The notes under the pieces are model-generated. The model searched no databases. It had not been told where the DNA came from and saw nothing but the letters and a program-made list of their open reading frames with translations. This document shows positions 3,611 to 57,482 of a DNA stretch of 64,000 bases, piece by piece. Source of the DNA: Yuukianura sp. NJ FZ-2021 (lineage: Eukaryota); NCBI GenBank assembly GCA_046563655.1, contig CM102287.1:4216001-4280000 (forward strand). Reading direction: 5' to 3'. Each line of letters starts with the position of its first letter. The first letter of the stretch is position 1. A program made the position numbers and the translations under genes.

Positions 3611-6043
3611 GTTAAGATACTTCCAAGTATTAGTTTTTTGAAATTTTCAAATTTTGAAGAAATTTTTATTTAGAATTGAAAATTTTATTTAGAACAAAAC
3701 TCGGTTGATTTTTTAGGCTTTAAAAACTTGTACAAAGACTCCCGCCCCCTAGAGACTGATACTGAGTTTTTAGAACAAGCTTTTTTCTAAGCAGCTTATG
3801 GAATTAGTGCAACTTTTTAGCTCAACCTGCTTGTACAATTTAGAATTTTAGAATTTCATTTTTTAGAATGTTAAAATTTTAGAATTTTTAAAAATTTATT
3901 GCTCTCTTGCATTGTTGTGTTCAAAATTTTGAAAAAAAAACTCATCCTGCCTACAACTGTCAGAGCAGAGTCATAAAAATGCCAAACTTGTTTGTAAATG
4001 TTCCTCTTTTTACACTAACATTTTTCTACCCTGTTTTTCTACTACTCTTAATCGTTGTTAAAACTGTAAATGTTTTTAAAATTTCAAAAAAACATCACAA
4101 ATTTTGAAACCAGAGTTTCGATTTTTCAAAATTTGAAAAAGGCTAGGCTTCTGTGTGAATAATAAATCGGGTTCCTGCCAAAAATGAAAAAATTCGACAA
4201 TTTTTTAGATTCTGTGTTATGAATTCATATGATTTGGGGTTCAAAATTTTGAACCAAGTTTCAAAATTTTGAAAACTGTTTCTTAACTTATGATTTCAAT
4301 TCTGTTTTTTGTTCTAGCTTTGTGGCGACAGACAGTCGATTCTGGATCCGGCCGCCCTAGGTGGAATTCTTGACTTTTACTTTTGCAAAAGTTTTAAGAA
4401 GCCACTAGGCTTCCGTATTCTCACTTTTCAATGCAATTCACACTCTCGTCAAGCAACTTTTTTTTGTGTCGTGCAATTGCTGCGGAGCGTTGGTTTGTGC
4501 AAAAAAACAGACACTGGAATGCAATTCGGCAACAATTTTGGAAGGGAGGAAAAAAGACAAAGAAAATGTCTCATCTGTTACGTAAACATTCGATGGTGTG
4601 AAAAGTGTAGCAGAAGTGACTCAAACTTTGTTTAAAACAAAAAAAATTGTTACGCGCGAAAAGCGCGAAAATAAATTTTCACGTCCTTATCAAAAATTTT
4701 ATAAGGAAGAATCCGTTTTGCAATATGTAATAAAAGAAGCTAAGGCTTTTAGATGCTTTCGAAAGCTTGAAACATGCTGTATAAACGCTATTGAAAATTT
4801 ATGTTTTTGGAAATTCTTGAAACGCCAAAGATTTTCCCAGTCTTTCTCATGAATTTTGAAGGATTTCCCGGTTTTTTTCTCAACCTCGGCGATTTTGAAG
4901 AAATCTTGGCTGGGGCAGGTGAAAATCGTTATTTGTGAGTTTATGAAATTGGAAATTTTGAAAATCAAATTTGAAAATTTGAAAAGTGAAATTTGAAATT
5001 TATACAGTGGTGATTGTTAAGTTCCTGGTAAGGAGAAAAAAGGCAAGGACGGAGACCGCGGCGCCAGGAGAGGAGCAAGGTCGAGGTGGCGCCGGCTTGG
5101 CCAAACGTGCAAAAAAATTTACTTTTTGTGTATGTGAGTCCATTATTGCATGAAAGAATTAAAGTGGGAAGATCAGAACGTTCTCAGAGAACACTCAGTT
5201 CCTATTCTCTCTTCTTACTGAAAACTGTACAACTTACAACTTTTTTCAAAATTTTGAAAAATATTGAAATAAGTTGTTTAGTAAGACTTAGTTCGACATT
5301 CTCAAATTCCGGAAAAAATCAAACATGAAAAGAGAAAAGTTATTTCATCCGCTTCTGTTTTAAAAAATACTTCGATCAGGTGAACTTTTTTTTCATTTTA
5401 CTTTTTGTTAAAGTTTTAAAATTCAAAAACAACTTTCAAAATTCTTTTTTTTTAATTTTAAAATTTTTTGTAGAAACGCGGGAGAGGCTGATGGCTCATC
5501 AAAGAGTTTAGAATTTCAGCGCCTCAAAAAGCGGCGTCCTTTATAAATTTTTTTTGTGTTTAAAATTTTTTCTTGATTTTTGTACAAAGTTGCACAAGAG
5601 TTAAGTTTATTACTTGCATCTGATACGAGAAAACATATCGGCCGGTGACCTTTGACCTCTTAGCGAAATCGTGACCTCGTGACCTTTGACCTCTTGTGCC
5701 AATTGTACATCAGCTTTGGACAGGATTTCTTGGAAGTCAGAATTCTCGCGAAGTCTCAATTGACAGGTACCCTTCTTCTGTGCAAAATTCTTGAGAAGCG
5801 ACGCTTTTCAGTATTGACAAGTGAGCAATTGATGTGAAATTCCCATGAAGTGAATTCTATTGACAGGTAGAATTTGTGCAAATTATTTGCACAGTTTTTG
5901 CACATTCATCGTCATTCACGTATTTGTAAGGAGTCTAAAAACATTCATTTTGTGCCAAGTTCCAACTAAACCATGTGAGATCCTAAATCCGGGTTGACGT
6001 CTCTCCGCGTCTTTCTCAAAACAACTCTTCTCTTGTTCCTCTC

Positions 6044-6449
6044 CAGTGTTGCTGGATGCTTAAACGTCCAGTGGCTTAATTGCCACTTCCACTGGATATC
6101 CAGTGGATGAAATGGGGTCCTACTGGACGGTGGATGGAAGAAATCAGCTGCGCTCAGAAAATAAGCGCAAATTTCAAATAACTTTACATTATAAATTATA
6201 AAATAATGACCTAAATATTAATTATTTAATTACATTAAATTAAATTCCTTAACGCAATTTTCCGTTTTTTTCGGAGCTTATTTGAATTTATTCCATTTGT
6301 TAAGTTTCAAACAATTCAAAAACCGCTGCTGTAACTCCACCCTTTTGGGTCTAGCTCCACCCTTTTGGATTCATCCATTTCGTCCATTTCTTCCACTGGA
6401 TATCCAGCCGTGGATGAAATGTCAAAAAAGTGGATATCCAGCAACACTG
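6044..6449. mobile_element. Non-autonomous hAT-type element (MITE)
   Basis: Perfect 14-bp TIR CAGTGTTGCTGGAT...ATCCAGCAACACTG; 8-bp TSD TTCCTCTC (6036-6043, 6450-6457); subterminal TGGATATCCA repeats. Confidence 0.9.
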
Positions 6450-7521
6450 TTCCTCTCTCAACAAAACAAGTTTTCGCATTTTTTATCATTTTGAAAAACA
6501 CTTTTTCAATTTTGAAAATAAAAAGTTTGTTTTTATTTCTGCAGCTCCCTTCGGGATCAGTTGAAAACTGGACCAGGATTTAAGGCGTTTCTGTTGTGAA
6601 TTGAAGCGAAAACGGAAATTTCCATTTTTGAAGGTTAGTCTTTGGATAAATGTCCTTTTTTGCGAGTTTGCAAAAATATGCGAATTTTTTGCGAATCCAA
6701 GTGCAACATCCTCTACAAACCGGAGATCCGTCTTCTGTGGAATTCCTGAATTTATTTCTTTGTTTTCTTTAATTATTAACAAACGCGTCTGTTTAAACTA
6801 ATTAATTTGCAGACACAAACAAAAATTGCGAAAAAAAAATTGGCAAATCCTGGTTTTGCAAAATTCGCACAAACGATTACAATCTAAACTCAAAACGTAA
6901 TCGTTTAGACTATTGTACTTTGTGAATTTCAGTTGGCGTCTCTGTACATCAAACACCTTGAATCACGTTCAACAACATTTGTACCGGTTCGCATTTTCCG
7001 CTTATACTGTTCCGAACCTACTTGGATTTTGTTCGGTATCAACTCGGTTTCCAACACATCACGTTTGCGTTTCACGGTTTGTCGAAATAGCCTCTCCTAG
7101 GCTTTGTCTTGCAATTTTTTTAAAAAATGAGACTGAGTTTACGAGAGGCATTCTTTGCACGACCGTTTGGACCATCCCGTACATCTTCCTTACAAAATTT
7201 CAAATTCGGTGACCTTTGACCTCGGCCAAGCAAAGGTCATCGTCATCTTAAAAGCTTGAATCTGATTGGCTAATCTGTCGCCTTATTAGCATCAACTACC
7301 GGTACGAGAAACTTGGTACGTTTGGTTTACAATCATAATTTTATTTCTATTCTTACAATTGACATTGAACTTTCTCGTTCATTTTTTGATTTTTATAAAA
7401 ATGTTTTCAAAATTTAGATTTTTACACAAAAATGAAATGTTTTGTGTCAGTTCTCGATTTTTCTCATGTCCATCCAATAAATTATGATCTACCCTTCAAG
7501 TCTTCAGTGTTCTGAACAAGA

Positions 7522-10500
7522 TTACTCTTTGTAAACGGTGTAGAATGGCCTTGACCTGCTTGACCTTCTCCTTTGACCCCCATGTCGTCTAGTCCTATGT
7601 ACACTTTGAACAGGTCGAGAGTTAATGTACTGGTCCAGAAAGTGATTGACGAAGGAAGGAGGAGCAGGGACGTATGAGGGATATACTTCCTGGGGTGCCA
7701 TTCGCATGCCCTGGGGGAACCGTGACCTTGAACGACCTCGGCTGGGGGGAGGGGTCAAGTAGGGGGAGGGATTGTCTTCGTCTTCAGAAACAAGTGAAAT
7801 GTATTCAGGGGTGTGATGGGGGTGAGAATCTGGGGAGGGGGAGAGGTCACCCCTGGGGAGGTCAAAGGTCATTGACCTTGACCTCTGTTGTTGGTGTTGT
7901 TGTTGTTGTGTATGATCCTGTTGTTCCTGTTGGAAAGGAGGCTGGTAAGATTGTGAAGGAGTGAAGGTCATTGACCTCCGAGGAGGGGGCGGAGTATAAG
8001 TGGGCGTGTGGGGCTGCGGATAATTTTGGCCGTATCGTTCCGTCACTTGTTCCGGTTCGACTTCTTCAAATGCCATGTACTCTAAATCCAAAAATTGAAA
8101 ATTGAAAAAATGTTATCAAAAATTTCAAAACAAGATATATTTTTACCGTACCGTCTAGAATGGGTTGCTGTGTCGTCGATTTGGGTTCGGTTCGGAACCG
8201 CATTCGTTGTTTCTCGGCTTGTGCCGAAACTGTTTCCAGTGGGAGTCTTGTATCGGTATCGAACGTCGGAAATCTTCTGTTGAGGCCATCAAAAGTTGAT
8301 TCAAACGGCGACATTGGTGGCTCTGAAGTGGTCGTTGTTGTCGCCAAGCTCGTGGTCTCCTTTTCCGTTGTCAATGGAATCAGCATGTGAGCATTCTTGA
8401 CAAAAGATGGGCGTGGCTTGTTATGATAAGGAATGCGCAGAGAAGTTAGAGTTGGTGCTTCAAGGGCTTCGTTAATTTTTTGATGTTCAATGCCCGGAGC
8501 TCGTCTTCTGTCTTCTACGTGAGCGCTTTCTTGACGCTGCTGGAGCTGAAACCGCCGTGAGCTGAGTAAATTTCGCGCCGTGGAAGTCGCGGTGACAACT
8601 TCCGGTTTTATAGTGGTCGTGGTGTCGTCATAATCTTCGTATTCGTATTCATATTGCGGTTCTGTTGGAGGCGGAGCCTGAGTTGTCAACGGTGTTGTGA
8701 ACTGTGTTCTGAACTGCGTTGTGAACGGTGTTGTCAACGGCGTTGTGACTGTTGAACTCCGAGTCCCGGAAGATGGCGTTGGAGGGTAACTTAAAATAAC
8801 GTTATTTCTGTAAGTTGTAGGTGGCTCCACTTCGTCTTCATAGTATTCATCATAATCCTGTTGTGGTGGCACCGTTGGTGGGATTGTAGGTGGGGCAGTA
8901 GTTGTTGGTGGGGCCCTTGTCGTTGTAGTTGTTGTGGTAGTTGTCACAATTGCATCTTGTTTTCTTCCTTGGAGGGCTCCGTACTTTAACTTTTCGTGAA
9001 TCGGCACTGGCGGCCGAATTTTCGGCGGCGCACGACTCTTCGAAAATATTTTGTCGCGATTTGACAGTGGCTCCAACGGTGCATCACCTGATTGGTTCCC
9101 CTCGACGTTGCTGATTGGTGGAGTCGGTTCCACGGCTTTGATTGGTGGAGCCTGTTGCACCGCTTTGGCTCTGGATACTGGCGATCTCGTACTCGCTCCA
9201 AGTCTACTTTCAAAGTCTTCCTTAACCTTTGACCGTTGACCTTTCTTAGCTGGTGCGACTTTTTCAAGGTCATCAGCTGACCCTCCACTGTCATAGTCTT
9301 CGTAGTCGTCATATTCTCTATCTCTGTCACGAAATTTCGGTTTTTTGGGACGATCTGTGTCGTAGTAGTCGTCATAGTCGTAGTAGTCGTAATACTCCGG
9401 CCGAGGCCTAGGACGGCGACATCTTCTGCGACGACCTGGACCACACCTACGACGATTTCGACGTCGTTTGGGCCGAATCGGATAATCCACGTCGGTTTCT
9501 TCGTAATCCCGATCTTTTACATCTTTTACCGAATCTTCTTCGGCATGTTTTGGAGCCTGTGTCGCAACTGGCTGCTCTTCGGTCCGCACTGCTTTAGTCC
9601 TCTGGGGAAACGGTGAAGGTCTAATTCGACGTCCGCTGGGACCAACGTAGATGACCACTGGAGCTACAGTTGTAGTTGACGCTGATTTGTACAGAGCATC
9701 GTTCCTAATTACAAAATAGTAATTAGATTTTGAGGTAATTACTTCGTAATTACTTGAATTACATGAATTACCTGTGAAAAAATAGAGCTGAATTTGGACA
9801 ATCGACTTCAGACACAAATTGACAAATGAAAGTGCGTTGGTCAAAGGCAGTGTAATTGGCACACAGGAAATCATAACGGGTTCCAAAGAGGCAGTGATGG
9901 TACAACTGAAAAAAAATTCGAAAAATGAGTTTCAAAAATTTCAGAAAACTATTTTCAAAAATTTCGGACTAAAAATTTCATCCATTTTGTTCAAAAATCA
10001 AGCTTTCTTTTCCTTGTAGTACGAATTGGCAAAGTTGTTCTGTCTACTTTTTTGCGAATTCTTTGAAGATGAAGATGATGTAAAAAGTAAAAGTGACTTT
10101 AATTACAACTTTATGCACAAAACAAAATCAAAATCTTCTTCATCATACTCATCATCATCATCGTCATCATCATCATCTTCATCCTGTTGAGTAAAAGTCT
10201 TATGCATTGTGTGACGTGACGACAGGTCAAGTTGATGCGTCTCAAAAAAATTCATAACAAAAAGCCTCCGTAACGTCGTTACGCTTTTGAATTTGAAAAA
10301 TGGAGCGCGCTTTGAAGCGAATCCAACTTCTGAGTATCTTTTGTCATCTTTGTCACAAACTTAAAAGAGTGTCATCCTCTCCATTGTGTCGTGTTTAAAT
10401 AGCAACGCTGCAAACATTTTCAGTTGTGGTCAATGACCTGTGGTCAAAATTTCAAAAATTTTGGAAATTTTTGAACTTTCAAAATTCACCCGAAGCTTGA

Positions 10501-10912
10501 AATATGTTGGGTAGCTTGAAATATCACTAGCATTTTTTTTTCGGAGAACTATTTATTCAAACATTTTCAAATTTTGTTCTACGCAGGTCATTGACCTTTG
10601 ACCTTTGACCGCTCACCTGACATTTGTGTTCTACACTAGCATAGAACCCGTCCTTGAGTCCATCACATGAAAAGTTAATGTTTTTTGGAATTTTGTTGAA
10701 GAATGGATACGTTGACAAGTTGTAGCCATTGAGTTCTCTTGGTAGATTCGGATCATGGACGTAGTCGATTTGTGGAATACCGGTCAAAGTGTAGTTTCGT
10801 TTCACGGTACCGTTGATGACGTTCCATTCTTCCGGTTCTCCGGTACCGGTACCACTTTTCGTCTCAGTTCCTTTGTCTGCTTCTCCACTAGCAAAGTTCG
10901 GTGGATCCAACC
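7522..10912 (-). CDS. Chitin-binding type-2 (CBM14) protein with long mucin-like, Tyr/Asp- and Arg-rich tail (CPAP1/peritrophin-like); 5' exon(s) unresolved
   Basis: Exons about 10912-10617, 9905-9772, 9704-8152 and 8081-7522 splice in frame. Six-Cys domain: FSCDGLKDGFYASVEHKCQ|LYHHCLFGTRYDFLCANYTAFDQRTFICQFVSEVDC. A possible extra upstream exon lies near 11028-10972. No signal-peptide exon was identified. Confidence 0.85.
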
Positions 10913-13900
10913 CTGAAATTCCAAAAAATGTGAATTTGCAAAAATCAAAATTTGCAAACTTGCAAAAATACTTCCGCCTTTGCCCAGCCTATAATTTGCG
11001 GATCTACTCATGCGTATACTCATCCGGTCTTAATTAATCAACGTGTTAATCTCTAAAGCACGTGCCTCAAGCTACACTTTTTAATTTTGTGCGAATTGGC
11101 TAAGCATGAGTGAAGTTTAAGGGAAAATTAGGAAGGGCCCTTGAAGGGAAGGAAAAGTAAAGCCAAGGACCCCCCAGGGGCCCTTAATTACTGGTGTGAA
11201 ATCCCTTAATTAAGGTGTGAAATTGTGATTTTAACCTACAGCTTGTACAGGAAAGTAAAACTTCAGGAAAAGATTTCTTTAACCTCGGAAAAGGTTTTTG
11301 TTTTGATTTTTGGAGCCTTGAAGGGACGCTATTTTTAGACAATAAGAAAAAAAGGCACTTAAGCGATCTAAGGGAGAGTTTTTGGCATTGAAGGGATTTT
11401 CAAAATTTTGAAAGGGAAGGTGAAAATGACCTTTAAGAAATTTTCACTTTTTCGAGATGTAAACAAACATTTCACTTTCGATTTCAAATCAGATTTCGAA
11501 AAATGAAACACGAAATGAGTGAAATCAAAATAAACTGGAATGTGTTGGACAAATTTTGAAACTAAATATTTATTTTTTGTAGATGTTTGTAATGAATCAA
11601 AATTTTGAGTTTTTACCAAAATTGAGCAGAAGAAGAATCCAAATTGGCAACCAGAAATCCATGATTTTGCAAAAATTGTTCAGCAATTCGGTCCTCTGCG
11701 TGAAGTAATCCAGATTTCCAAAAAGAATGCAAAAAAAATGGAAAAATTGAGTTAATCGCAAATTTAATTCTGCTATGCACATAATTGCTGTGCAAATTTG
11801 CCATTTTGCTAATTGCACCTTCCGCCTTGTTCTAATTTTAGCAAACCAGCCACACCCTCGATGGCCTCCACTTTGCTCAATTGCAATTCCTTATTTTCGC
11901 TCGATTTGCAAATTTGCAAAAATGTCATTTAATGTCTAGCCGCTGCTGTTGTAGTTGTTGTTATTGTTGAAATTAGGGAAAGTTTCGTTTTGTTGGTGCC
12001 TGCTTCTGAGCATCGCGCATGCGGCTGAGCTGTGCCAAATTGTTGCAAAAATTTCATTCTTAACAGAGTTGCACTAATCACCATTTCCAACGTGCAAAAT
12101 TCTTGTACAAATTTCAAATTTACATACTAAACAACTAACCACCCTATAACATAACAAAATCAACTTTAAAAGTTACACCTCACAAGTGCCTCTGTAATGC
12201 CTGTTACATTACGTGTGAAATGTTTCGTCACTCTGAGCTAATATTTGCAAAGTGCTTTTCAATTTGAATTCGAAAATTTTGTAAAATTTTGAAAAATATT
12301 TCAACCAAATAATTTTTTTTATTAAAATTTTTAGTAATGTATATGGTGGGTTAGGTATTTCACCTTCTCCCACTCGCAAAAAAGTTTTAAAAAAAAATCT
12401 GTCAAAAAATCAGGAACTGGAATTTTTTTTTCAAAAATGGAATTTTTTATGTTGAAAGGAAATTTGCAATTAGCGTGATTAATTTGGCTTCAAATTTGGG
12501 TCGAAATGGAAAAAAAGCTTGTTGGATTTATTAGTTCGTAAATTGCAAATCGTAAATCTTAAAAGCAAGGAAAAACTCTTCAGAGATTTTTGTTGAAAAT
12601 CGTATAAAGAATTTTTGCACCTTGAGTGATTACAGAGATTGATTAGTACGAAGGAAGTCGGTAGGCAACAATGAAATTTTTTCTTTTACAGTGATCCGCT
12701 CTAGTGATTTGCTCAAACAGTTTTGAGTCGAAGTCAAATCACTGCTCTGCTAAATTTGATTTCTCATATGAAAAATAATAAGATTTCATTTCGATTTCAT
12801 GTGGAGTTGCAGGAACACACTTCAACCTGAACCCCATTTCTTCCTTGTGGGTTTCCAAAAGTGAATTCAACCAAAAAAATACTGTGGGGAACGTTTTTTT
12901 GAAAGGGTTTAAAATTTCCACTAAAAACTCTGATTTGTGAAAGTTTTTGGTTTTATATTGTGAAATTTTAAGACTTTTCAATTTTAACGTTTCAATTTTT
13001 TTCAGTTTTATCAATTTTGCCGAAAGTTGCGTAAACTCTCTCCCCATAGTTTTTAAAATTCTTCGCTGCCACTGGCCACTTTTATGCTTGTTTTAAAAAC
13101 TAAATTTAAGCAAAACGCTTCATAACTGGAGCAAAACGCAACAAAATAAATTCCTGAAATTAATTAATTTAAATTCAAATAAAAATTAGAACTAAATCAA
13201 ATTTCGAAATTACAAAAACAATTTTTTGAAAATCAACCTTATCTCTTCAGCCCAAGTCCAACCAAAATTTTGAGAGTCGGTGACATTGGTTTAAATTTTT
13301 TCACTTCCCTTCCATTATGGAGTCTCACAAAACACTTCCTGGATGAAGGGTGGAAGAGGGAGGGGGTGACTTTTTGCACACTTTTTTTTAACTATAATTA
13401 AGACACTTTTGACCCAATTTAAACTTTAGTAATTCACTACTTATTTCACGTCACTTTTCCACAGAAGTTACAATATTTTGAAAGGAAGAGCAAAAGCAAG
13501 AGTGTTTCTCTGCCAAACCACAAGCACCCACTCCTAACTCCTCCAAAGTGATCTTGCACTGATGCAGATATTGCAGAAGAAGGCAGTGGAGTAGGGGAGA
13601 GGGAGGGGTTATCCCCCCATACTAAGGGGGCTATTTGGGGGTGGGGAGTTTATATGCACTTTTACACTAAGGATTTATATGGGGGGATGAAACGGGGGCG
13701 GGGGATGTTGAATGCCTTGGACTCTGTCTTAAACTGCTCAGTTGCTCCCTTTGTTTTTTTGGTAACTTTGCTATTCCTTGAAGGCAAAAATCCTTTCCCT
13801 TTCAATTGTTGCACGAATGCAACAGTGCAGAGTCCTTACGACAGTTGTGAAGGGAGTAACTATAGCTTGGACGTGCACTTGTACTTCAAATGAAACTGAA

Positions 13901-14369: not shown

Positions 14370-15054
14370 TTACATTCTAAATATTATTTTCCTGTTTCTG
14401 GAATTCTTTGCCTTGTCGGTGTAGAGGTCTTCGTTGACATTGTACAAGTTCGGAGCAAGAGCACAATCTACGTTGAACCTAAAATTTGAACAGAATTAAT
14501 GAATTACATAATATATTTATAAAAGTATATAAATGCTGTGAATTAAATAATATATGAAAAAAATTTCATCTAATGTAAAACAACGAAGTTTACCACCAGT
14601 CGCATATCCTGTGGAGTTGGTTGAAGAGAGTCCCATTTGGACAGAGGAAGCTGTACTTGTAGCCTCCGTCAACACACCAGTGCCAGGCCTAACACAAGGT
14701 CAAAGGTCAATCATACTTTTCTAAATTATAATATAAAGTATATGTAAAAATCTGTGTATTGAAAGTTTGCTAGTCACTTGACAGTTGGTTTCTGGATCAG
14801 CGAAATATCCAATTCGATTGAAACAAGAAAAATGAAGACGCGGAGGTATGGCAGAGTATGCAGGAAAATCAATCCCTGGAATTCCTTCCCTACTCTATAA
14901 AAAACGAAAAATTTTGAAAAACAAGACAAAAGTTTGCACTTTTTGGTTTTTGAGAAAAACTAACCTTTGCAACTCCCAGAACTTGCAGAGTCAGAGATGA
15001 AATGAAAACGAGCACAACGATAGTTCCGACACTTTGCAAAATCCAGCAGCTCAT
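14370..15054 (-). CDS. Small secreted chitin-binding type-2 protein (CPAP1 / U-scoloptoxin(01)-like)
   Basis: Exons 15054-14965, 14894-14778, 14688-14594 and 14478-14370. Signal peptide MSCWILQSVGTIVVLVFISSLTLQVLG is followed by GIPGIDFPAYSAIP..FSC..GYFADPETNCQAWHWC..SFLCPNGTLFNQLHRICDWWFNVDC. Confidence 0.92.
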
Positions 15055-17602: not shown

Positions 17603-19037
17603 ATGGAAGACGATTTTGAGCTGAGCAGTGACCGGGGACCTCTTCTCAACGGAACCTCATCTCCTGGTAAGCGTTTAGAAGGAATTCAATGAAAGTACGA
17701 TTGCGCAAAAGTGAGTGACTGTGCATGACAATTTCAATTTGGAATTGACAAAAGAACAACGGGATTTCTATGATGAGCAATTGAGGCTAACTAAAAATTG
17801 ACTTTTACAAAAAATTGTGATCTCCGCCCGCTACGTCAGATCCTGTTTCCGCTTCTATTCTTTACACTTTTCGTCTTTCAAAAAGTTCAAACTAAAGCAG
17901 TCATTGTTGACACGCTCGTTTCAAAAGAACTGCTGTCCATTTTGAAAAAAGGAGCAATTTTTGAATAGAGTTGATTTTTGAAACACGGCAGACACAATTT
18001 GTGGCTCAAAAGAATCAGTTTTTCAATCATAATTTTGGAATTTCGACTTTCGATTTTGGAAAGTTCATTAAACTTTGGTGTTTGCAAATTCCTGAGTGTC
18101 GTGTGCTATCTCGAGGAAGTACAAATGGTTTGAGTTTTTCAAAATTTTGGTTTTTGGTGCAGAAATTCCAGATTTTCAAAACGACATGCTCAAATATGCA
18201 CTCAGACGGAGAGGCAGCAGTGATTCAGCTAATAGCCAAAATGACAACAAAGGTCAACAGCAACAGCAACAGCAGAGGTCAAAAGGTCAAGAAATTCAAA
18301 TTCCATTCGACTCAACTGCAATGCCGTTACCACAAGTAAGTAAAATCCAAAAATGAATCCTCTACGACCGAAGCGAAGAACTAGAAAATACACCAAAAAC
18401 TTAAAGTAAATTCAAAAACCGAATTTCGAGTGGTATGAAACAAATTTTCAAAATTTTGATCAAATTATGAATGAATTTTGTTTTGATTTAGCGTTTTGTG
18501 GTGAAGTACTTGGGCGTGCGGGAAACTTCAAATTTGTGGGGCGTGAAGCACACGAGAGGTCCAGTGGACGAAATGGTGGCCGAATCAAAACGGATTTTGT
18601 CCACCACTTCCGGAACTCTGCCACTTTTGACCTTGGAGGTCACCGAATCCGGGGTCACCGTTGGCCCGATGCCCCAAAATGTCAATCCGAACTTTCCGCA
18701 AGGTCGATTCCCCATCGAGTCAATTTCTTATGGCGTCCAAGACTTGGTCTACACACGCGTCTTTGCTATGATTGTCGTAAAGCCCAACAGTGGTACGCAG
18801 ACGCCTGCGTCAGAAACGGAATCGACGCAGCAAAAACTAAGGCAAAATCTACCACCTTTTAGATGTCATGCGTTTGTTACAGACAAGAGAGAGACAGCAA
18901 AGAATTTGACCTTTGCTCTCCAAGCAGCATTTCAAAAATTTAGTCAAAAAGTGGCCAGTAGCAAAGTCAAGTCAAAACGAATTTTGATTGACTTGGGGTC
19001 AGGTCAAGCTCATGAGCAGATGGATTCAGAGGCATAA
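17603..19037 (+). CDS. PTB/PID-domain adaptor protein
   Basis: Exons 17603-17666, 18163-18335 and 18492-19037. PTB hallmarks: FVVKYLG, ISYGVQDLVYTRVFAMIV and FRCHAFVTDKRETAKNLTFALQAAF. Confidence 0.85.
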
Positions 19038-31071: not shown

Positions 31072-31565
31072 ATTTGGAAAATACTGGCAGTTTTTTCATG
31101 GCGAATGACATGGAGGTCAAAGGTCATGAAGTAAGCAGTGCTCAGAATTCGCCTCGTTTCTCGTAGTAAACTTGTGAGTCAACGCGATTGTAAATCAAAA
31201 CTGTTCAAAGTAGTCAGAAAATACGAAATTAAAAATTTGTTTTAGAGTATATCTGTTTTCGAATCATTTTTTAAAATTCCAAAGTTTCCAAAAAAAAGTT
31301 TTACTTTTTCAAAAGCGAGTCAGGCTTTATTTCAGTAGGAAACTCTTCAACAGTTGCGGGAGTTTGGACACGGGGGTATCAAAAAGTGAGTAAAACTTAA
31401 TAACTTAACAAACTTAACTTAATTAATAGTAGAACTTTAACTTTAACATTGGTCTTAGGATGTCAACGGTGGTGACTGCAACGTCAATCTAAAGATGTCA
31501 ACGGTAACTTCAACGTCAGCTGTATAGCTTGAACGTCAACCTTAGGATGTCACCGTCAACTGACG

Positions 31566-34500
31566 TTACGTTAGGCCAAGCGTCTCCAAGTTGTGGTTGA
31601 TGATCATGTGATGAACGTCTTCAAACACTGTTTGAATGTTATTGGTGTCAGTTGCCGTGGTGTAGTGCCAGTAGCAGTCGCGTTTTGGACGCCACTGAAG
31701 GTGAGAACTGGACATGTCGTGGTGATTCTGCATTGGATGGTGATGTGTCAGCCCAAGCACTGGAGTGAAACTCATCTTACGCGTGGGCGTCACTGGCGTA
31801 GTTTCCTTGGCGTACTGAAAGCACAAAAGAAAAAGTTGAAGGTCAAGAGGTCACGAACTTTTGAGATTTTTGACATAATTGATGTTTTTATGTAATTCAT
31901 GTTTTTATGTAACTAATTCATGTTTTTGTGTGTGTAATAGATGTTTACCCAGAACAAGTCACGGATGAAGGACCGAGTTTTCAAGTACTCGCTGTTTGTG
32001 TTCTCTGGTTGGAGTGGTTCCTTGTGATGATTAATTGAATTGGAGGGAGTGTATGAATAGTAATCTGGAAAGTAATTTCCAATTGACGATCCACCGTGAC
32101 TAGCTGCTGCCTCGACCTTCTTCTTCAGTAAGTCTTGTTTGTTTAGAAAAATTATGAAACCGGAGTCCTGTAGGAATCTAGAAAAAAAGTTAAAACAAAA
32201 CACAAAATTAACACAATTTGTTTCATTTCCAGGTTCGTTTTTGGAGTCTCTGAACTGGGTGGAAGAATGGAAGATTTTGTCTAAAACTTTTTTGTCTTCC
32301 TGTTTTGGAATTTTTGTAAGTTTTTGATTTTTTTTTTTTGTAAAAGTTATACCTGCTACTCCAAACGTCTTTGAAGAGGTTAATTGACTCTTGTAATCTG
32401 TTCAGTTTAGGATCTTCTGCTGTAAACTGGTCATAGACGTTGCAAGCAACGAGGAACAAGATCATGTGAATTCCGTCAAAAACTTGGATCCACTTTCTCC
32501 TCTCTCCGCGCTGACCTCCAACCTTTAAACGGGAAACCATAAGTTTTAGAGTCTTGGACTGTCAAAATCGAATTCAGCATCGAAGAATCTATAGCAATAT
32601 GTAATGTATTTTTTCCAAACATCAAACATCCAGAAATTCTGCACTCCGCCGCCATATTTCTTTGGAACTTTCATCTGGAACTCAATCTTCTGGATATCAG
32701 TGGTCGTCCGACGCGAGTGAAGAATGTCCTACAATAACAAAAAAGTAAGTTTACATTTTGAAAAGTTGTGTTAACTTTACATCAATTCTCTTTTTGGCCA
32801 AATTTTGAAAACTGAAAAGTTGACATCATGTCTTTTTTTGATACAGGTTGACACTTGACAATCATAAAAGCTCTTAGTCAGTCATTTGAGTCATGGAGGC
32901 TACATGGAGCTTACAGCGTCCGGCTTTTTCTGGAGGTTATCTCTGCGCAGGGTCAGAACGCATGCAAACTTGTGTTACATGACATGAGCAGCACAAGTAT
33001 GAGCACTGACCACTTGAGTCGAGGATTAGTATTTGCACAACTGTAGTGCCTGTACTTGTACTTTTTCGTGTTCGCTGACTGACTGACGACGCAATGTTAT
33101 GATATTACTTTGTTAAGTGTCAACTTTATGTCAATTTTCAAAATTTTGACAAAGTTGTAAAATTTCGGAAATTACCTCATCTGATGGGACATAGTCTGGG
33201 TGACCAACCTGGGAAATCCGGTCTAGAAAACTAGATAAAAAAAATTGTAAATTAGAAATTGTCAGTTTTTGACTTTTTGAATTTAAGTTTAACCTTAAGC
33301 TAAAGTTTAGTTAGCTAATCTCGCGGTGTGATTAGTAGAGATTAACCTTTGCGCAAACTTGTGACAATGAGGATTTAAGGCTACGTGTGGGCGTCGCAAA
33401 TTTTAGATAAACTGGTCCAAGCGAGATTAATCAAGAGCAGGAAAAACGTTGGCGAATTTCGCAAATTTGTCACGGACATGTTTTGGAACAAATTAAAGTA
33501 GGAACTTCCCGCAAGGCAAGTTAGGAAATGTTTTGATTCGTCAATTTGCGAAACCGGAACATGCTAAATTTGGCGGAACCGTAACATAGTACTAAAAATT
33601 TGCAATTTAGGCAGACTTACTATTTAGCACAGTCTGGTAGTTGGAAGGAATGACCCCGTTCGTAGCTAGCTTGTACCCCTGGATCCTCCCATATGTTTTT
33701 GACATGCTCAAAGAATTCTGGAGTGTACTGGAACTTGTCTTGGTCCAGGTCAAGGTTACGAATGTAATTGATACTGGACGAAGTAAATTTATTGCCCAGC
33801 GGAATTTCAAATCTGGTCATTTCGCGAACGATTATAACGATACATTCCAGGACGTTGGTTCGAATCTCGCGAGCTTTTTCCAATCGTTCTCTAAAAAAAG
33901 AGCGTCAATTAGCATTAGCCTTATGAAAATTTAATTAATTCAATTATAATTTAATTAATATTAATTCCACTACAATTTAATTAATTTTAATTTAATTATA
34001 ATTTAACTAATTTTAATTTAATTCTAAAGTCATAGGTTATGGATGTCACGTGATCAAATTTGACATTGAGTGGCAGCACAAAGTCACTGTTGACGCAATT
34101 GAGTGACTGACAGTGAATTGTAAATTTTAATTTTTACAAAAAAAAAAAACGTGTATTTTTAGAAAATTTTTGGTCACGTGGGTACAAGATGCAACTGTCA
34201 GCCCTACTTCAACCGGAAACACTTTTTAATGCAACTGGGTCGCACTAATTAGAAACTTTGACACTTAGAAAGTTACGACTTTTTTGAAAACAGAAAAGTT
34301 AAAACTTATGTCAAAATTTTGAAATTTCTCATCCAAATGTGTTTCTTTCAGAGGTCGAGGTTATAAAAGGTCAAAATTTTAAATTTTGAAAATATCAAAG
34401 TTTTTTAGAGAGTCCATTTCAAAAGTTTTTTGTCTTTGTAACTTACGCTGGTGTGAATCCTTGAAAGTGCAAAATTTTCATTTGTTTGATAATTGTTGTT

Positions 34501-35100
34501 TTTCCAGACTCTCCAGCTCCTGTGAATGGAAAAAACCGTCGCTAAATTAAAAATCTGGACCAAGCTGGACTAATTTTTTGCAAAACTGCAAATTGGCACA
34601 CACAAAAAACTTTTTGACAACAATAGACATGACGACATCAGTTCCAGTGTAGCCTTCAAAGGATTATCACCAAGGTACGAAAATACCGGAACTTTTTGCA
34701 ACATTGCGAAAAAGTTGCGAAAAAAAAATTCCGATACAGATTAAGTTATTGTGAGGTTTACCGAGAAGCAGAATTTTGATTGCTTTGTTGTACGATTTCA
34801 TCCAAATTGCCAATTTTTTTTCTAGGTCAACCGAAGCCCTGCGTTCAGGAGTTCCAAGCAGCTTCGGTTTAAAACAGCCCAAGATCTACAAAAGTCAATG
34901 TACCGAGGTCAGAGGTCAGATTTCCAAAATCTTAAAACTTGAATTTCAAAATTTTGAAAATTTCATTCTTGAATGTTATGTTAAAAACTTACTTTGTGAA
35001 CTTTTGAAGGCATTTTGCGCAAGCCCTTTGGATTGTTCGTGAAATCCGGGAGTTCTGGAAGATCTTGGGCACCAGAAGACGATCTTTGCAAGGAAATCAT
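31566..35100 (-). CDS. Galphaf: Heterotrimeric G-protein alpha subunit, G(f)/Gs-related
   Basis: Nine exons. Motifs: KILLLGAGESGKTT (G1), DILHSRRTTTDI (G2), MFDVGGQRGERRKWIQVF (G3), IFLNKQDLL (G4) and HYTTATDT (G5). The subfamily call rests on the Gs-like NKQD and RRKWIQ motifs; the f subtype is less certain than the G-alpha call. Confidence 0.88.
32847..33124. mobile_element. Possible small TIR element in a G-alpha intron
   Basis: 14/15-bp inverted ends GTTGACACTTGACAA...TTGTTAAGTGTCAAC enclose a GC-richer interior. No TSD was found. Confidence 0.35.
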
Positions 35101-39921: not shown

Positions 39922-40849
39922 ATGTTTTGGATTTTGGTACAATTTTCGCCAAGGTTGGCCAAATTTCGCTTAGAACACAAATTTCAACTCGTCGTTGTCA
40001 ATATTTTGACTTTGGTTTTCGCTACTTTTACGGAAGGTAAGTTAAAATGCTAAAATTTTAACTAAAAGTTAAGTTAGTGAGTTATGTTATGTTAGCGTTG
40101 AAGTTTCACATTTTTCATTTGATCTTTGACCTCAGGGAGAAGATGCTACGTGTGTTCAACTGCGTTTGAATTGGATCAGAAGGACTGTCTCTACAATGTT
40201 GAAAATTTAACGGAAAGCTGGAACAACATTAGCGTCGTTTACTGCCAAAATTATTGTACGATACGGAGACAAGAGTATTCTGACTTTCCAGGTACACCGA
40301 AAATTGGTTCTTGACCTTGTGACCTTTCGATCTGCGACGTTTCGATTGTTGACCTTTTGACATTTTGGCCTTTCGATTTTTTGAGCTTTCGACCTTTTGA
40401 CCTAGGTGGGATCAACTACTTTAACAGAAGTTGTGAAGATGAGAAACTGGATGAAGTCATAATCGGTGACTACTTCATAACTTACTTGCGCTCTTGTCGT
40501 AGTGACCTCTGCAATTCTGGAAACGGAATCCAAAGTAAGCTCAAACTTCAAACTTCACATTTTGTGAAATTTCGGTTTTTAAATTTTGATTTTCATACCC
40601 CAAATTGTAAAATTTTGCAAACTTTAGTGTTACCTAAATTCAGAATAATCGGATTTCTTCGGTTTTTTCTCTACAGGCCTCAAAGATATGCCAGAAGATG
40701 AGTTCAAATGGCCAGTGGCCACTGTTCACCATGCAGAAACTGCTGACCCCAACATCAGTGCTCATCGTGACCTTGACCCCTTGACCTTTTCATTCTTATT
40801 CTTAAACACTTTAATCTCCGTAGTACAAAGCATGGAAATCTTTTTGTAG
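39922..40849 (+). CDS. Ly6/three-finger (quiver/sleepless-like) protein, probably GPI-anchored, copy A
   Basis: Exons 39922-40036, 40136-40291, 40406-40534 and 40677-40849. Hydrophobic leader, then CYVC..C..CQNYCTIRRQE..RSC..RSCRSDLCN, then a hydrophobic C-terminus. Confidence 0.8.
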
Positions 40850-41108: not shown

Positions 41109-42522
41109 ATGAAATCGTTCAAGCAAAACTTGATTTTGCTTTGCATCTTTGCGGCTCTCACCATTCACAAGGCTGTTGGTAAGTACTGAAATTTTTCAAC
41201 AATATTCAGTAAGGGTGTTCATATTAAATTTAAAAACCCAAGCATTTGACGTTGAGATACATCGATTTTCCGACATTTCAATTCCTTTGGAAATTTTAGA
41301 TGTCAATACAAATATGACTTGCCTCCAAAATTTTACCTATTGTAGTATTATCTTATTATCAGGGCTGCAAGAAATATTTTCTTAAATATTAAATATTTTT
41401 ATATTTAAAAAAATATTCCGATATTTTAAAAAATATAAGTATTTTTCTAAATTTTTGGCTGTTTTTGAAAAATAATAAATAATTTTTGTAAATATTTCGC
41501 CATTTCAGTGTTTTTCAAACCAAAATTTAGGTATATTGGTGATATTTTTCGCCCAAGGTTAACAATTTTTTCTCTTTCAACCGATCAAGAAACGCCAAAG
41601 GCATCTTTGAACAAATTCGACATCCTGTTAACTTTTAAGCTAAGCAAGAAAATATAGTACAGGTACAGAAATACTCAAAATCCCAGTTGCGCTAAAAGTA
41701 TCACCTATATTCTAACCGAATTTACGTGGTTTCAAGACAAAATTTTGTAAATATTGACTTTGTTAGTAAAATTTTCTTAAATATAGTGCCGTTTTTTAGT
41801 AGATATTTCAATAAATATTTTGGGTTTTTTTTAGTAAATATTTTTTCCAGCCCTGCTTATTATAACCTAAAGGAATTGATTTTGTGTATTTTATAGGTCA
41901 GTATCCTGACTTACAATGCTACAGTTGCCAGAGCTTCCCCACTGACTTGACGTGTCTCAATGACCCTACGTTGGTCACTGGTCAAAATATTGTTGCTTGT
42001 CCAGACGGTTGGTGTACCATAAGGAGACAAGAAGCAATTGAAACTCCGGGTAAATGAAACTTAACTTTTTTGAAACCCAAAACATTTTGAAAAAGAAATT
42101 TTTGAAGTTGACCTTTGACATTTCAGGTGAAATTTTGTCGTTTCTCCGCGGATGTGAAAAGACGGAACCAATGTTTCTGGATGAAATTGTAGTTGATGCT
42201 CATCAAGTCAATTTTTTCCGTAGTTGTCGACGAAATCTTTGCAATGTTGGGGATGGTGTAGACTGTAAGTCTCGGTTTTAAAATTTTGGAAATTTCGAAA
42301 TTTCATTTTGAAATTTTGTATTTTGAAGCATTTGGTGGACCTGGCGGCAGTGGACCGGAGGGCACTGGACCACATATTGTTAACCTTGACTGTGACTATT
42401 TGCCTGAAGAAAAAGATTCTTCTGTTGTAGTTCCCGAATATTGTTTGAGTGCTGCTACATCTTCTGTCACTCCAACAATTTTCTTCTTGCTTTTACCACT
42501 TTCACTTTACAACATTTTGTAG
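41109..42522 (+). CDS. Ly6/three-finger (quiver/sleepless-like) protein, probably GPI-anchored, copy B
   Basis: Exons 41109-41178, 41897-42049, 42127-42264 and 42329-42522. Signal peptide, then CYSC..C..CPDGWCTIRRQE..RGC..RSCRRNLCN, then the tail IFFLLLPLSLYNIL. Intron phases match copy A. Confidence 0.85.
41360..41855. mobile_element. Non-autonomous hAT-type element (MITE) in intron 1 of Ly6 copy B
   Basis: TIRs CAGGGCTGCAAGAAATATTT and AAATATTTTTTCCAGCCCTG; 8-bp TSD CTTATTAT (41352-41359, 41856-41863); AAATATT subterminal repeats. Confidence 0.9.
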
Positions 42523-42654: not shown

Positions 42655-42899
42655 GGTTGGGGTAAGCTTTAACGACCGTCATTGTAGCCGCACAGTGTAG
42701 CCGCTCCGCCATTTTTCGTGGCTACAATGGGTGGCTACACTGTGTGGCAACTTATGTTGCCACTTTAGGTTAGGTTACGTTAGGTTAAAGTGGCTACTTA
42801 AGTTGCCGCTCAGGTGTAGCCACCTATTGTAGCCACAAAAAATGGCGGAGCGGCTACACTGTGCGGGTACAATGACGGTCGCTAATCCTTACCTCGACC
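42655..42899. mobile_element. Mutator-like foldback MITE
   Basis: Inverted arms of about 110 bp (GGTTGGGGTAAGCTTTAACGACCGTCATTGTAGCCGCACAGTGTAGCCGCTCCGCCATTTTT... mirrored at the right end) surround a TAGGTTAGGTT core. 9-bp TSD CCATGCTTC (42646-42654, 42900-42908). Confidence 0.93.
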
Positions 42900-43201: not shown

Positions 43202-43390
43202 CAAGGTTGCTACGATCTCATTACAAATTTTTTCTAAATAAAAAACAGCTTTACTTGGTTTTACTGCATTTCCCTCTTTTTTTTAAGTTTTTGCTAAGTT
43301 TTTCAAATGAAAACGCTTTCCCTCCCAGAAGCGTTGGGAAATTCAGGCTCAAGTGGTATACTTGTATCATGTCCGTAACACCAATGCACA

Positions 43391-43474
43391 GTCAGGATGG
43401 TCGAGTGGTCTAAGACGATAGATTTAAGCTCTATTTCACAATCGTGAGCGTGGGTTCGAACCCCACTCCTGACA
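43391..43474 (+). tRNA. tRNA-Leu (anticodon TAA)
   Basis: Acceptor stem GTCAGGA/TCCTGAC plus discriminator A; D-arm GGTCGAGTGGTCTAAGAC; anticodon arm ATAGA-TTTAAGC-TCTAT; long variable arm TCAC-AATC-GTGA; T-arm GTGGG-TTCGAAC-CCCAC; T-run terminator just downstream. Confidence 0.96.
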
Positions 43475-46443
43475 ATTTATTTTTGCAATCTTTTTTTGCA
43501 AAAAAAGACGGGCCTGGTTGGGTTTAGTTTTGAGGAAAACACGGAAAAATCGAATTAAACATGTTAAAAATTATGTGAAAATTAATAAGTTGTTAAGGTG
43601 TATGTTGTAGATTTTTAAGCCGCGAGTTCGAATTCCGCTTTCCTCGAAAATGCTGCTGCTACATGTAGTGGACACAGGAATGAAATTCCAGATTACTTCA
43701 ACCCATTTTCCAAATCACAATTTTTGCACAACGTCGTCGCCGCAGATTTAATTTCTGGGTGCTTTTTTTTTTAAAACTTACTCTCATAGTTTGGTACTCA
43801 CTGCCAACTGCCGATTTGAAAGTGTTTCATTTTCAAAATTTTGAGATTCGTTTAAAAATTTATAACATTTTGAATTTTTGAAGCAGAATTGAATTGCGTG
43901 AATTTGATTAATTGGCGGTGGACGTTGGTTTGGTAGTAAATTGGCGGAGGTAAGGGAGGATGAGATTTTTTTTCAATTGTTGTCTGAAGCCTGTAGGATT
44001 GGACAAGGCTACGGGAGTTCATTCACTTCATCTTCCCAAGACACTCACCCCCATCATCCCATCTTAACATAACAACACACTCATCCATCACTTGAGTTAA
44101 TCACAATTAAAACTTAATACAACCCCAATTAAGTAAATTAAACATTTAATTCAATTCAATTCTATTCTATTCCATTCAACTGCAACCCATCGCCAAAATT
44201 TCATCACCGATTTTACTTCCTCTTTTTCACCGGCGAGAATATACCGCGTCAATGTCAATGTCAATGTCAAAAGGTCATCAAGGTCACAGCCTCCAAGGTT
44301 TCGCTTCCAAAAGTTACACCAAGCACACCAAAAGTCAACTTTTTGAAATTTTATAAAATTTCAAAATCAGTAAACTTGATTTCATCGTTTTTTTTTTCCT
44401 AATCTAATCCAAAACTGAAAACTGCATCAGCAAAAATTTTGTTCTTCCTGTTTTAGTACGTTGGTCAGCGTCCTGGCCCAGTTTTGCATTTTGAAAATTT
44501 CCAAATAAAGTTAGGTTTTTCCAAAATTTGAAATTTTGAAAAACGTAAAGTAGTGCAGTCCTACCTAGCAAGTGCGAGGTCGTCTGAATGCAAATTGACA
44601 TTGTAAGTGAAGGGGGTTGTTGATTGTTGCCGGAGGAGAAGGTAAGAAACCAGGGGAAAGGTAAGGAAGAGAACAATAGAAGTTTCTTACCTCCTCAACT
44701 TACCTGCTCAAACTTCAAACACTTCTGGTACACTCCACCAACCATCAACATCAACATCAGTCTGCATAAAAACACCGAAAAAAGTAGTGTCAAAGTTCAC
44801 ACCTTTAAAAATTTAAAAATTACAACTTAACTTTAATTTCATCTTTGAACTGGAGCTGGAGAAAGTTCAAGTCCAGGAAAAGTGAAAGCGACGCTCAAGT
44901 GAAAACTGTCTAAACTCAAAACTTTTTTTTTCTGGAAATCTTTGAACTAATTTTTGGGTAAGTAATTTTTGGAATTCTTAATTTTTGAGTTTCGAAATTT
45001 TGAAACTGGTTAATACCGGGATAGTGCTGGGGTTCAAAGACCCGGAGAGCTGAAGATGTTTGGATTCCCTTCCTGTTAGTCGGCTTTTTTTGGTCGAAGA
45101 TGCTCAAAGGGTTGAGAAATGTTGTTTCACCTTTGGAAAATGTTCGTTCCAAACCTGTTGTTTACTTGGACGGACACAGGACAGGTCTAACGGAACTTTG
45201 AGAGAGATGTACTAGGCATAGAAACACTTTGGACACGAAATTCAACTAAAACAATACTAACATCAATCATCATCCATATAAACTGCATGACAGATTCACA
45301 TTTGCAGGAGATCAGAACAAAGTTGGACGCTAGGTCAGAATTTCTGGACGAAGAAGAAACTTTCTTCCAAAAATTCGGAAATTGACTAAAAGTTTACTAG
45401 TTGAATTGTGAAATTTTTTATATACGAATTACGATTGAGCAAGAAATTTCAGAAACGATTGCAGGAGTTGCACGGTGGTAAAATTTTTTACTATTTGAGT
45501 CATCGATTCGTCCGGAATTTTGCAGTTCCATTTGGCACCAGGGTTGGGCATTCTGAAAATTACAAAATCTGACAGTTTTAATTTAAAATTTTGAAGCTGA
45601 AAATTTTAAGTTTTTAGTTTTTACAACTAAACTGCATATAAAAAGTAACTGTTTTGTTGGTTTTGTGTTTGGATTGTCAAATTCAAGGTCTAGGTCAATA
45701 AAATTTATGAACAGGAACAACGGAATGTTTTTTTTATTTTATTGACCTTTAGAAAAAACTGGACACAAAGTTTAAAACGGTGAAGATTTATTGACCTTTG
45801 ACCTTTAAAAAAACAGAAAAGCCTTTTACAACAGTTTGTAAAAGTGAGAAAGTTTTATAGGAATGAGGAACTGGACTTTTTGTGTAACCTGCAAAGTGTA
45901 ATGGCTTAAGATGGTTTTAAGCTAAGATGATAAAGCAGGTAGACTAATTAAGAAGATGAACAAGGTGTGAATGGCCCCTCAAAAGTAAAAGTGACCAAGA
46001 TGAAACCGGAACGGAAAAAATCACAAAGATTCTTGCTCCTTTCATTATCATTTTTTACAGTCATTTCCTCATTCACTTTAAATTACTGCCACCACTTAAT
46101 TTACACTGTTGTGCTTTTATAAAAGTAAAAGCAAATTAAAAAAAAACAAACATTTTTTTTGTTTTGAAATTCGTGAAAACGAAATTCGAAATTTAGTGCA
46201 GCGTTTGAAACAATTTAAATCATTTTCATGACATTTCCGTCATTACAACTTAAAAATTAAATAAAATTTCGTAGAAAATATTATTTTTTTTTTGACCGGG
46301 GTTTTGCCTTTGAAAATCAATTTTTTAAGACTCAATTTTTCATAATTTGAATTAATTTTTTCATTTCAGAGACTGATGAAGCTTTGACCAAGGTTTGGAT
46401 TTTTTAACAAATTTTGGAGATTGGGTTTCTTGCGACAAGAAAA

Positions 46444-55826
<9,383 letters not shown>

Positions 55827-56528
55827 AAACAATTGACCAAAATTCAAAATTTGCCCCCTTCTTCAACGCTCAACACTGTGATGAACCAAAGGTCAAAGGT
55901 TAAGCGATACGACGATACGAAAGTGACGAACGTCAAAATGACTTTAATTTATTCGTAGCCTAACAAAAACGAAAACTAACGTTTCAGTGCCAATTTTGAC
56001 TAAAAAGAGAAACAAGTTTTAGAGTAGAGCTACCGATTTTCAAAATATTCGTCTAAAAAGTTAGTTTTAGTATAAAAAATTAATTTAACTTATTTTAAAT
56101 GTAATTAGGGGGAGAGATTGTTAAATTAATGCGGTTTTGGGATGGCGAGGGTCAAAGGTCATCTCTCCCTAGTTTGGTGCTCAAGATTCTTAACCCCTCT
56201 CCCAAATCTACTTAAGTAGACATTAATTTTTATAACTTTATAACTATTATAATACTTTACACATAATTTAATAGTCAATTTAATTAAATTAACATTTATA
56301 ATGATTAATTTATTAAAGTAAAACTGTGGACAACAGAACAGGAGTGAAAGTTTTTTAAATAAACAGTTTTTACACAAAAATGAAACTTCCTGATTTTTTC
56401 TCGCAAGTGTAAAATATTTTTGTTAGCATGAATTCATTAGCACTTTCAAAATTGATTATTCTCAAATAATTATTATATATAAATAAATAACTATTTATAT
56501 TGTATTTATATTGGACCTTAATCACAAG

Positions 56529-57482
56529 ATGTCGGCCGACACGGTTTCAGCGATTGCAAAGCGATTCAAGAAGCAGCGTTTGGCTTTTGAAGAATTTGAA
56601 CAAGCCGCGAAAGTGAGGCACTTGCAGCGATCGGCTCAACTGTCGCATGTATTGATGCAAAAGGAAGCACAAATCCAGCGCAAGAAGCAGTATCTCAAGA
56701 GCTGCGTTGACCAAGCCAAACTTGCAGCGCTTTTTCCGCCTGCAAAATCAGCCTACTTTTTGAAAAAACTCATGTCCGCTAGAGCTCAAAATTCAAACCA
56801 AAGCAATACCACCGATACCGAACGCGGAGCACGACTTCCTGCAGAGCCAATCACAAACCGCCGTTCTTCTGTCCAGCCAATCACAGCTCGAGAGTCTGTC
56901 AAGCCAATCATAGCCCGTGAAAAGCTTCCCACAATTCTGGAACGCAAAGCACAAGACACCGATGAAGTTTTGACTCAAGGTCGGAAGTTGCTCGGAATCG
57001 GCTCAAAAGCGGAACTGAAAAATTTCAAATTTGAACCGTCGGGACCATTCCCACAAAATTTTGAATCAACTTCCAAAAAGAAGTTTTCCATGGAATCATT
57101 TCCTTTAGGAGCAATTCGGAAGCCAATTCGACTTTGGCCGGTACAGAATCAGAGCATGACCTTTGACCTCCAGGGAAGAAACGGAACCAGTTCGAGTCAA
57201 ACTGTCGGTAGACCAGTTACATCAAAAAATTCCAAGAAACAAGTACTCATGCGTAACTTTTTGACTGATCTGCTTGCTCCTGCTCCTCCTGCTGACTCCG
57301 CCTTCTCTCAGCGTCTAAACTTGGCCTCTTCAGGGTCAATGACCTTTGCAAGAAACCAGGTCAAAGGTCAAGAAACAGACGATTACTTTACTCCAGACAA
57401 AACAATCATGGATGCCATGGGCGGAAAAATGCTCAAACCATTCTCGTTTCTGCGTGGTAGTGGTGATGTCACTGCAGGCTGA
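56529..57482 (+). CDS. Uncharacterised basic protein, intronless ORF of about 317 aa
   Basis: Long ORF with GC content above the flanks, first ATG at 56529, helical N-terminal part, and AATAAA about 100 bp after the stop. No domain recognised. Confidence 0.65.
   Translation: MSADTVSAIAKRFKKQRLAFEEFEQAAKVRHLQRSAQLSHVLMQKEAQIQRKKQYLKSCVDQAKLAALFPPAKSAYFLKKLMSARAQNSNQSNTTDTERGARLPAEPITNRRSSVQPITARESVKPIIAREKLPTILERKAQDTDEVLTQGRKLLGIGSKAELKNFKFEPSGPFPQNFESTSKKKFSMESFPLGAIRKPIRLWPVQNQSMTFDLQGRNGTSSSQTVGRPVTSKNSKKQVLMRNFLTDLLAPAPPADSAFSQRLNLASSGSMTFARNQVKGQETDDYFTPDKTIMDAMGGKMLKPFSFLRGSGDVTAG

Follow-up and report, generated by a model that had tools for sequence, protein, structure and literature searches.

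The 64,000-nt stretch of Yuukianura sp. NJ FZ-2021 analysed here (GenBank GCA_046563655.1, contig CM102287.1, positions 4,216,001 to 4,280,000; the window) carries 11 exact copies of a 13-mer made of two directly repeated AGGTCA half-sites with a single adenine between them. This is the form of the nuclear-receptor element DR1 (direct repeat, 1-nt spacer; DR and IR denote direct and inverted repeats of the half-site, followed by the spacer length). The copies belong to a dispersed family of exact, receptor-shaped sites that is blind to the boundary between coding and non-coding DNA and follows chromosome domains. The sites are candidate functional response elements.

Genes and 13-mer copies in the window

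The window is a gene-dense arthropod stretch, with a fibronectin-III (fn3) receptor, a PID adaptor whose closest named relatives are crustacean and collembolan, a G-alpha gene and a serine protease. From their sequence motifs, some window genes are presumably frazzled-like, chitin-binding-like or sulfide:quinone reductase genes. Pfam gave no confirmation of the chitin-binding domain in the two exons tried.

All 11 starts given in a preliminary description of the window were confirmed. Dinucleotide shuffles (n=100) contain a mean of 0.01 and a maximum of 1 exact copy, and Markov models of orders 1-6 trained on the window predict 0.003-0.74. When up to two mismatches are allowed, the window has 27 copies against 2.5 expected. 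Seven near-copies had also been listed, and four of these are one-mismatch DR1 sites (34906, 55890, 56149 and 42109, the last given as 42110). Two others, placed at 18277 and 31841, are exact DR2 sites that start at 18276 and 31840, and the one at 40391 is an imperfect DR2. Five one-mismatch DR1 sites had been missed (2039, 9230, 10599, 40120 and 49041).

Two minus-strand copies, 5646..5658 and 5680..5692, are non-coding, and the first starts a cluster of five half-sites (5646-5692) with a single-copy flank. Another non-coding copy, 7210..7222 (-), lies 3' of a minus-strand gene. The copy at 7859..7871 (+) lies within the open reading frame (ORF) 7522-8112 (-) and has one half-site in common with an IR1 palindrome at 7866..7878; the same ORF has a second IR1 at 7965..7977. 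At 10585..10611 (-) an IR1, an exact DR1 (10592-10604) and a one-mismatch DR1 (10599-10611) form an array 6-13 nt inside an intron, past a donor inferred from sequence at 10616. The intronic copy at 14697..14709 (+) is 6 nt from the inferred acceptor of a minus-strand gene. One exact DR2, 18276..18289 (+), falls within a coding exon that precedes the PID-domain exon, and another, 31840..31853 (+), at the border of an intron and an exon in the G-alpha gene. The copy at 31114..31126 (+) lies past a stop codon with GTAAG 5 nt on, in a 3' untranslated region or a small exon. A DR1 with a G spacer is found at 34906..34918 (+), and a one-mismatch DR1 at 42109..42121 (-) in a short intron. Around the serine protease, one exact copy is non-coding and upstream of the coding region (45792..45804, -), one is intronic with an inferred acceptor 10 nt downstream (54465..54477, +), and a one-mismatch DR1 follows directly past the stop (55890..55902, +). 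A GGGTCA-type DR1 at 56149..56161 (+) is intergenic.

The single-exon orphan ORF 56487-57482 (+), of about 317 aa, carries two exact DR1 and one IR1: the copy at 57157..57169 (-), and an IR1 (57333-57345) with an exact DR1 (57358-57370) at 57333..57370 (+). Three homology searches gave no credible relative, so only the length and codon score of this ORF mark it as coding. As had been described, the motif encodes the peptide SMTFDL both here (57157) and in ORF 7522-8112 (7859). For conservation of this peptide, the first search gave no homologue (0 of 1890 candidates), the second a single weak match, to an unrelated repeat protein, and the third a value of 0.75.

Proximity of several copies to splice sites had been proposed. 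With splice sites inferred from GT/AG and reading frame alone, three of the 11 copies (10592, 14697 and 54465) are intronic and within 15 nt of an inferred site, and 31114 is a possible fourth. A branch-point or other RNA signal is rejected because, near inferred splice sites as in codons, the word is found in either orientation. As a crude intron proxy, 53 short stretches that separate coding segments (9101 bases) contain 13 half-sites and no exact copy, and show no concentration in introns.

Genome-wide abundance and chromosomal distribution

The exact 13-mer occurs 4585 times in the 98.66-Mb genome (eight large contigs), a density of about 46 per Mb; the reversed word, used as control, occurs 52 times. 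In 49 spaced 10-kb samples (490 kb) there are 15 exact copies. DR1 sites total 5846, and the spacer is A in 78% of them, G in 830 and C or T in 431 (1261 sites with other spacers than A; control 86). DR0 occurs 2373 times (control 228), DR2-5 together 3163 times (468) and IR1 1427 times (73), with A or T at the centre in 88 of the first 100 IR1 listed. A 624-kb set of 46 spaced loci, the window and its flanks, of which just the window was chosen for the motif, gives DR0 37, DR1 60, DR2 21 and 7-16 at longer spacings; palindromes are IR0 0, IR1 16 and IR2 5, and everted repeats 0-7. The homogeneous expectation for these direct and inverted counts is about 1 and 0.5. Among the paired AGGTCA sites that make up this genome-wide family, the 13-mer is the most frequent; DR1 far exceeds DR0, followed by IR1 and DR2-5.

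AGGTCA itself is the most over-represented hexamer (2.49-fold under an order-3 model), and among its 18 neighbour hexamers just GGGTCA (1.4) and AGGTTA (1.6) stand out. In the 624 kb, GT-type half-sites are rare (AGTTCA forms 0-2, the HNF4-type word AGTCCAAAG 5), and an HNF4-specific pattern is not favoured. A telomere-type repeat is rejected, since 5-nt spacing occurs 3 times against 60 for 7-nt spacing and TTAGGT is uncorrelated. Most tallies exclude a tandem-repeat locus (L056) and two satellite loci (L035 and L060). The latter, at G000:C5 0.5 and 2.0 Mb, are pure satellite of one family, and GGTCA is absent from both 10-kb samples.

The preliminary description offered two readings, the first a hormone-receptor code specific to this locus that co-regulates cuticle genes at the moult. 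The window does have 11 exact copies against a genome mean of 3.0 per 64 kb (P 3e-4), and it contains IR1 sites typical of EcR-USP. Its own neighbourhood, with 13 of 204 thin-sample sites in C5:3.7-4.8 Mb, would give about 17 per 64 kb, so the window is not above its megabase surroundings. The right 50-kb flank has 13 exact copies and the left 2, and cuticle genes are a minority in the window. Natural ecdysone elements have a degenerate TGAAC form, which occurs 2 times in the 624 kb against 16 perfect IR1. A locus-specific code is rejected because of the thousands of copies elsewhere and the denser right flank, and we consider it highly improbable. The 13-mer is a genome-wide feature, not a switch special to this locus. 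The second reading, a genome-wide motif that reaches into coding sequence, is supported by codon shuffles (below).

Uniform density had been named as the outcome that would refute a local code. The distribution is genome-wide and also clumped in megabase domains (per-Mb over-dispersion of thin-sample sites, chi2 184, 58 df), so it is not uniform. The centres of the large contigs C3 (2.2-11.5 Mb) and C4 (5.0-13.7 Mb), with bounds fixed on an earlier sample and tested on independent samples, have 3 of 103 sites against 17 of 70 reversed-word sites (P 3e-5). These centres contain ordinary genes plus repeats. Contig C8 is low at the borderline (5 of 103 against 10 of 70 control sites, P 0.05). Over 46 loci, half-site density shows no significant correlation with GC, poly-A or TTTCAAAA (best P 0.07). 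No other long k-mer of the window is as frequent as a palindromic word based on TTTCAAAATTTTGAAA, found in introns throughout; the abundance of this word differs widely among genome samples, with a weak, non-significant link to AGGTCA density.

This clumping, with the low count on C8, would suit a mark of chromosome architecture (pairing, loading of a chromatin complex or domain identity) whose reader would be a nuclear receptor or another protein of the same specificity. A lineage-odd gene, L099, that combines C2H2 fingers with five receptor-type DNA-binding domains might be seen as its reader. The sites have neither strand nor chromosome exclusivity, the C8 deficit does not repeat in an independent sample (4 of 38, P 0.77), and the recognition helices of the five domains are, by eye, degenerate and unlike the AGGTCA-reading type. 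An architectural mark seems doubtful on this evidence.

Imprint on codons and exactness of the sites

The word leaves its mark on which synonymous codons are used. Codon score predicted 219 coding segments, of which 214 were used, and a retrotransposon locus (L050) and the P/Q-rich exons of the window were left out of the codon tests. When synonymous codons are shuffled, AGGTCA is found 88 times against 23.8 and ranks 1 of 4096 hexamers, while its complement (71 against 25.8) ranks 5. A third-position shuffle conditioned on the next base gives 159 against 60.8 (rank 1 of 2080), with an excess over the null in all five readable frames, and DR1 8 against 0.3. AGGTCA keeps rank 1 when the window is dropped (74 against 26.4), when segment ends are trimmed (102 against 33.5) and in 34 Pfam-hit stretches alone (20 against 8.7). 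The effect is weaker in motif-poor regions (20 against 10.9, rank 20). A second codon-level bias, for CTGGA/TCCAG words on both strands, also occurs genome-wide.

The suggestion that the motif also shapes protein sequence is supported by DR1-compatible peptides, which number 8 against 0.7 expected, small numbers of which 2 come from the window. Five of the eight use the exact word, and some of the segments are low-scoring. For single half-sites the effect on peptides is slight (655 compatible peptides against 583), and the control word has a like excess. In motif-rich regions exact sites are about as frequent in coding DNA (5 in 47 kb, 0.106/kb) as in non-coding DNA (27 in 227 kb, 0.119/kb).

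The sites cluster tightly around the exact word. One-mismatch sites number 6323 over 39 variants, or 162 each, so that the exact word is 28-fold commoner. Among 72 distinct variants that overlap no exact site, 18 differ at position 1 (16 of them G) and 12 at the spacer, and the remaining eleven positions average 3.8, with none at position 13 (chi2 56.9, 12 df). The variants gather at positions that a receptor would tolerate. Motif-centred loci, many on C1, contribute to this set and to the 80 distinct exact sites considered next.

The flanks bear on how the sites arise. After a fresh 7-nt tandem duplication, one flank must show the same base as the spacer, so the 20 of 80 exact sites with A on neither flank, near independence, are unlike such a product. 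The sites do not look like tandem-duplication micro-repeats, by this flank test and by the uneven variants. Slippage also cannot make palindromes, so that the IR1 excess (1427 against 73), with no IR0, is not due to slippage.

Candidate receptors and the maintenance of the sites

The genome has 38 zf-C4 matches, of which 30 were translated, an ordinary and apparently single-copy receptor set. The USP and Svp DNA-binding domains were confirmed through their best solved-structure matches; HR78, HNF4 and EcR are, from sequence features, presumably among the others. EcR-USP prefers IR1. PMC6555819 gives the half-site as RGKTCA and adenine as the favoured DR1 spacer, and PMC10345098 reports that COUP-TF prefers DR1 and that unliganded RXR prefers IR0 first. 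An RXR-homodimer pattern is not favoured here, because IR0 is absent from the 624 kb. PMC4362205 reports that receptors of fly and human largely share their specificities, which supports transfer to arthropods.

The family has the consensus, 1-nt spacing over other direct spacings, A spacer and tolerated first-base G of the DR1 element of COUP-TF/Svp, TR2/TR4/HR78, RXR/USP and HNF4, and cognate receptors are encoded. A nuclear-receptor identity fits the spacing, spacer and variant patterns, making these candidate binding sites. The family differs from ordinary DR1 elements in its number of perfect copies, its occurrence at like density in the coding and non-coding parts of rich regions, its codon imprint and its rare GT-type half-sites, and target-gene logic is not seen. 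Like the EcR-USP element, IR1 is the sole enriched palindrome, mostly with an A/T centre; the differences are that most IR1 here are perfectly symmetric and that DR1 outnumbers them fourfold.

L099:1-3023 (G000:C1:1920226-1923435, +), the gene mentioned above, has a C2H2 zinc-finger array and then five tandem divergent receptor-type C4 domains, one per exon, and its apparent stop comes without a ligand-binding domain ahead of it. Just past that stop lies an exact DR1. Two-domain nuclear receptors have reportedly been published (PMC1810520).

Paired AGGTCA sites may be recognised by ordinary nuclear receptors, most likely Svp/COUP-TF at DR1, with HR78 or USP as possible readers, and EcR-USP at IR1. 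A weak force on each site, wherever it is located, would preserve the exact sequence, and this force would be selection for bulk receptor occupancy of chromatin, not for gene-by-gene switches. New sites would come from point change, local copying and repeats. In the middle of large chromosomes this force may be reduced in strength or efficiency, perhaps via low recombination. Judged from sequence, we see roughly even chances that NR2-type receptors bind the sites and that such a weak per-site force or selection keeps them exact.

Several observations weigh against this. Sites that are as dense in coding as in non-coding DNA do not resemble enhancers in ordinary use, and this evenness offers no clue to the benefit. 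As a class, dipeptides whose codons can contain the half-site show no enrichment (GQ 76 against 76, RS 133 against 138), and the control hexamer ACTGGA is likewise enriched in codons (rank 9-58). The one-mismatch excess, about 5700 above background, has the size expected from neutral decay; just the variant distribution contradicts such decay, on 72 sites that are partly motif-centred. Half-site pairs at 15-35 nt lie on the same strand 156 times and on opposite strands 73 times, which fits local copying, and a 5' G precedes 6 of 11 G-spacer and 27 of 80 A-spacer sites, a slight signal of duplication.

These last points bring in the possibility that the sites are functionless products of copying, seeded as AGGTCA arrays by transposons and short local duplications and then decaying. 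The earlier statement that the copies are not one transposon family holds in the window, where none of the 11 shares flanking sequence and a single transposon source is rejected because the flanks are unrelated; elsewhere, 8 of 30 C1 sites lie within small repeat or paralogue families (three families), which also counts against receptor-based maintenance. The same is true of a metagenome scan for paired DR1, which gave at least 120 stretches. Among the 80 of these that were examined, 44 come from one assembly series (39% GC, low CpG, animal-like), and 36 of the 44 share sequence mutually, as repeats rich in DR0/DR1 arrays. Repeat-borne arrays of the word therefore exist in other, probably animal, DNA. 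Repeat elements with such arrays are common in marine invertebrates. At L001-L003 (G000:C1 227-281 kb) a repeat of about 1.4 kb with nested inverted structure contains DR1 of both spacer types.

Copying of this kind cannot give synonymous-site enrichment inside Pfam domains, where the favoured single half-sites are not deliverable by a repeat, nor an IR1 excess, and IR1 is absent from all 44 metagenome loci. It also cannot yield position-biased variants or the sites without a duplication flank, and positions 5560-5960 of the window occur once in the genome (in a search that skipped simple repeats). HNF4alpha sites are reportedly spread in Alu repeats (PMC3252374); some sites here likewise ride in repeats, but most flanks are unique. 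Functionless copying as the whole explanation is unlikely.

The family works like a receptor element in its sequence and like a bacterial uptake sequence in its genomic behaviour. According to PMC2817400, the DNA uptake sequences of Haemophilus and Neisseria have thousands of near-perfect copies on both strands and in genes, and shift codons and short peptides. Here, too, perfect copies dominate and enter codons on both strands; the differences are that this is an animal genome with no uptake machinery, that the word is a transcription-factor site and that the peptide effect rests on the 8 cases against 0.7 given above. The likeness suggests a molecular drive, in which a protein bound to the word would bias meiotic break repair or gene conversion toward the allele that carries the site. 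This would be hotspot erosion in reverse, and sites would accumulate where recombination is high without any benefit to gene regulation. Indifference to coding status, the sharp exact-match peak and the depletion in the C3 and C4 centres are consistent with it, and the account of uptake sequences in PMC2817400 has the same signature. More efficient selection in high-recombination DNA would give the same map. An animal counterpart of uptake drive, with a receptor on the site biasing recombination repair or shielding the site from change, is conceivable by analogy, if on balance improbable; it would let the site spread via recombining domains, rewriting codons and some peptides without regulatory benefit. 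To our knowledge, no such drive mechanism has been described for any nuclear receptor.

If the sites are bound, the receptors whose usual role is to time moulting and development would face a sink or scaffold made up of tens of thousands of half-sites and of perfect dimer sites in the thousands. A transcription-factor word would then rank among the main factors that set synonymous codon choice in an animal. The strong difference between rich and poor domains, which can be mapped, opens a long-standing question to direct test, namely whether binding sites build up through functional selection, repeats or biased repair. Among the papers listed in searches of the openly accessible literature, none describes genome-wide AGGTCA saturation in an arthropod.

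Other features of the window include a tRNA-Leu (TAA) gene at 43391-43474 (+) and two small elements. One, at 42674-42880, has inverted ends (by eye) and TTAGG-like units and is likely a miniature transposon; the other, of about 400 nt at 6044-6449, has terminal inverted repeats of 14 nt and inner inverted arms of 24 nt. At 48466-54365 (+), very long P/Q/G- and S/T-rich repeat exons with internal repeats of about 162 nt precede the trypsin domain. The random genome samples also contain candidates for transferred genes: a cyclopropane fatty-acid synthase (L034:3956-4879), a GH5 cellulase (L041:3037-3636) and a gp5-trimer-like domain (L059:6230-6715).

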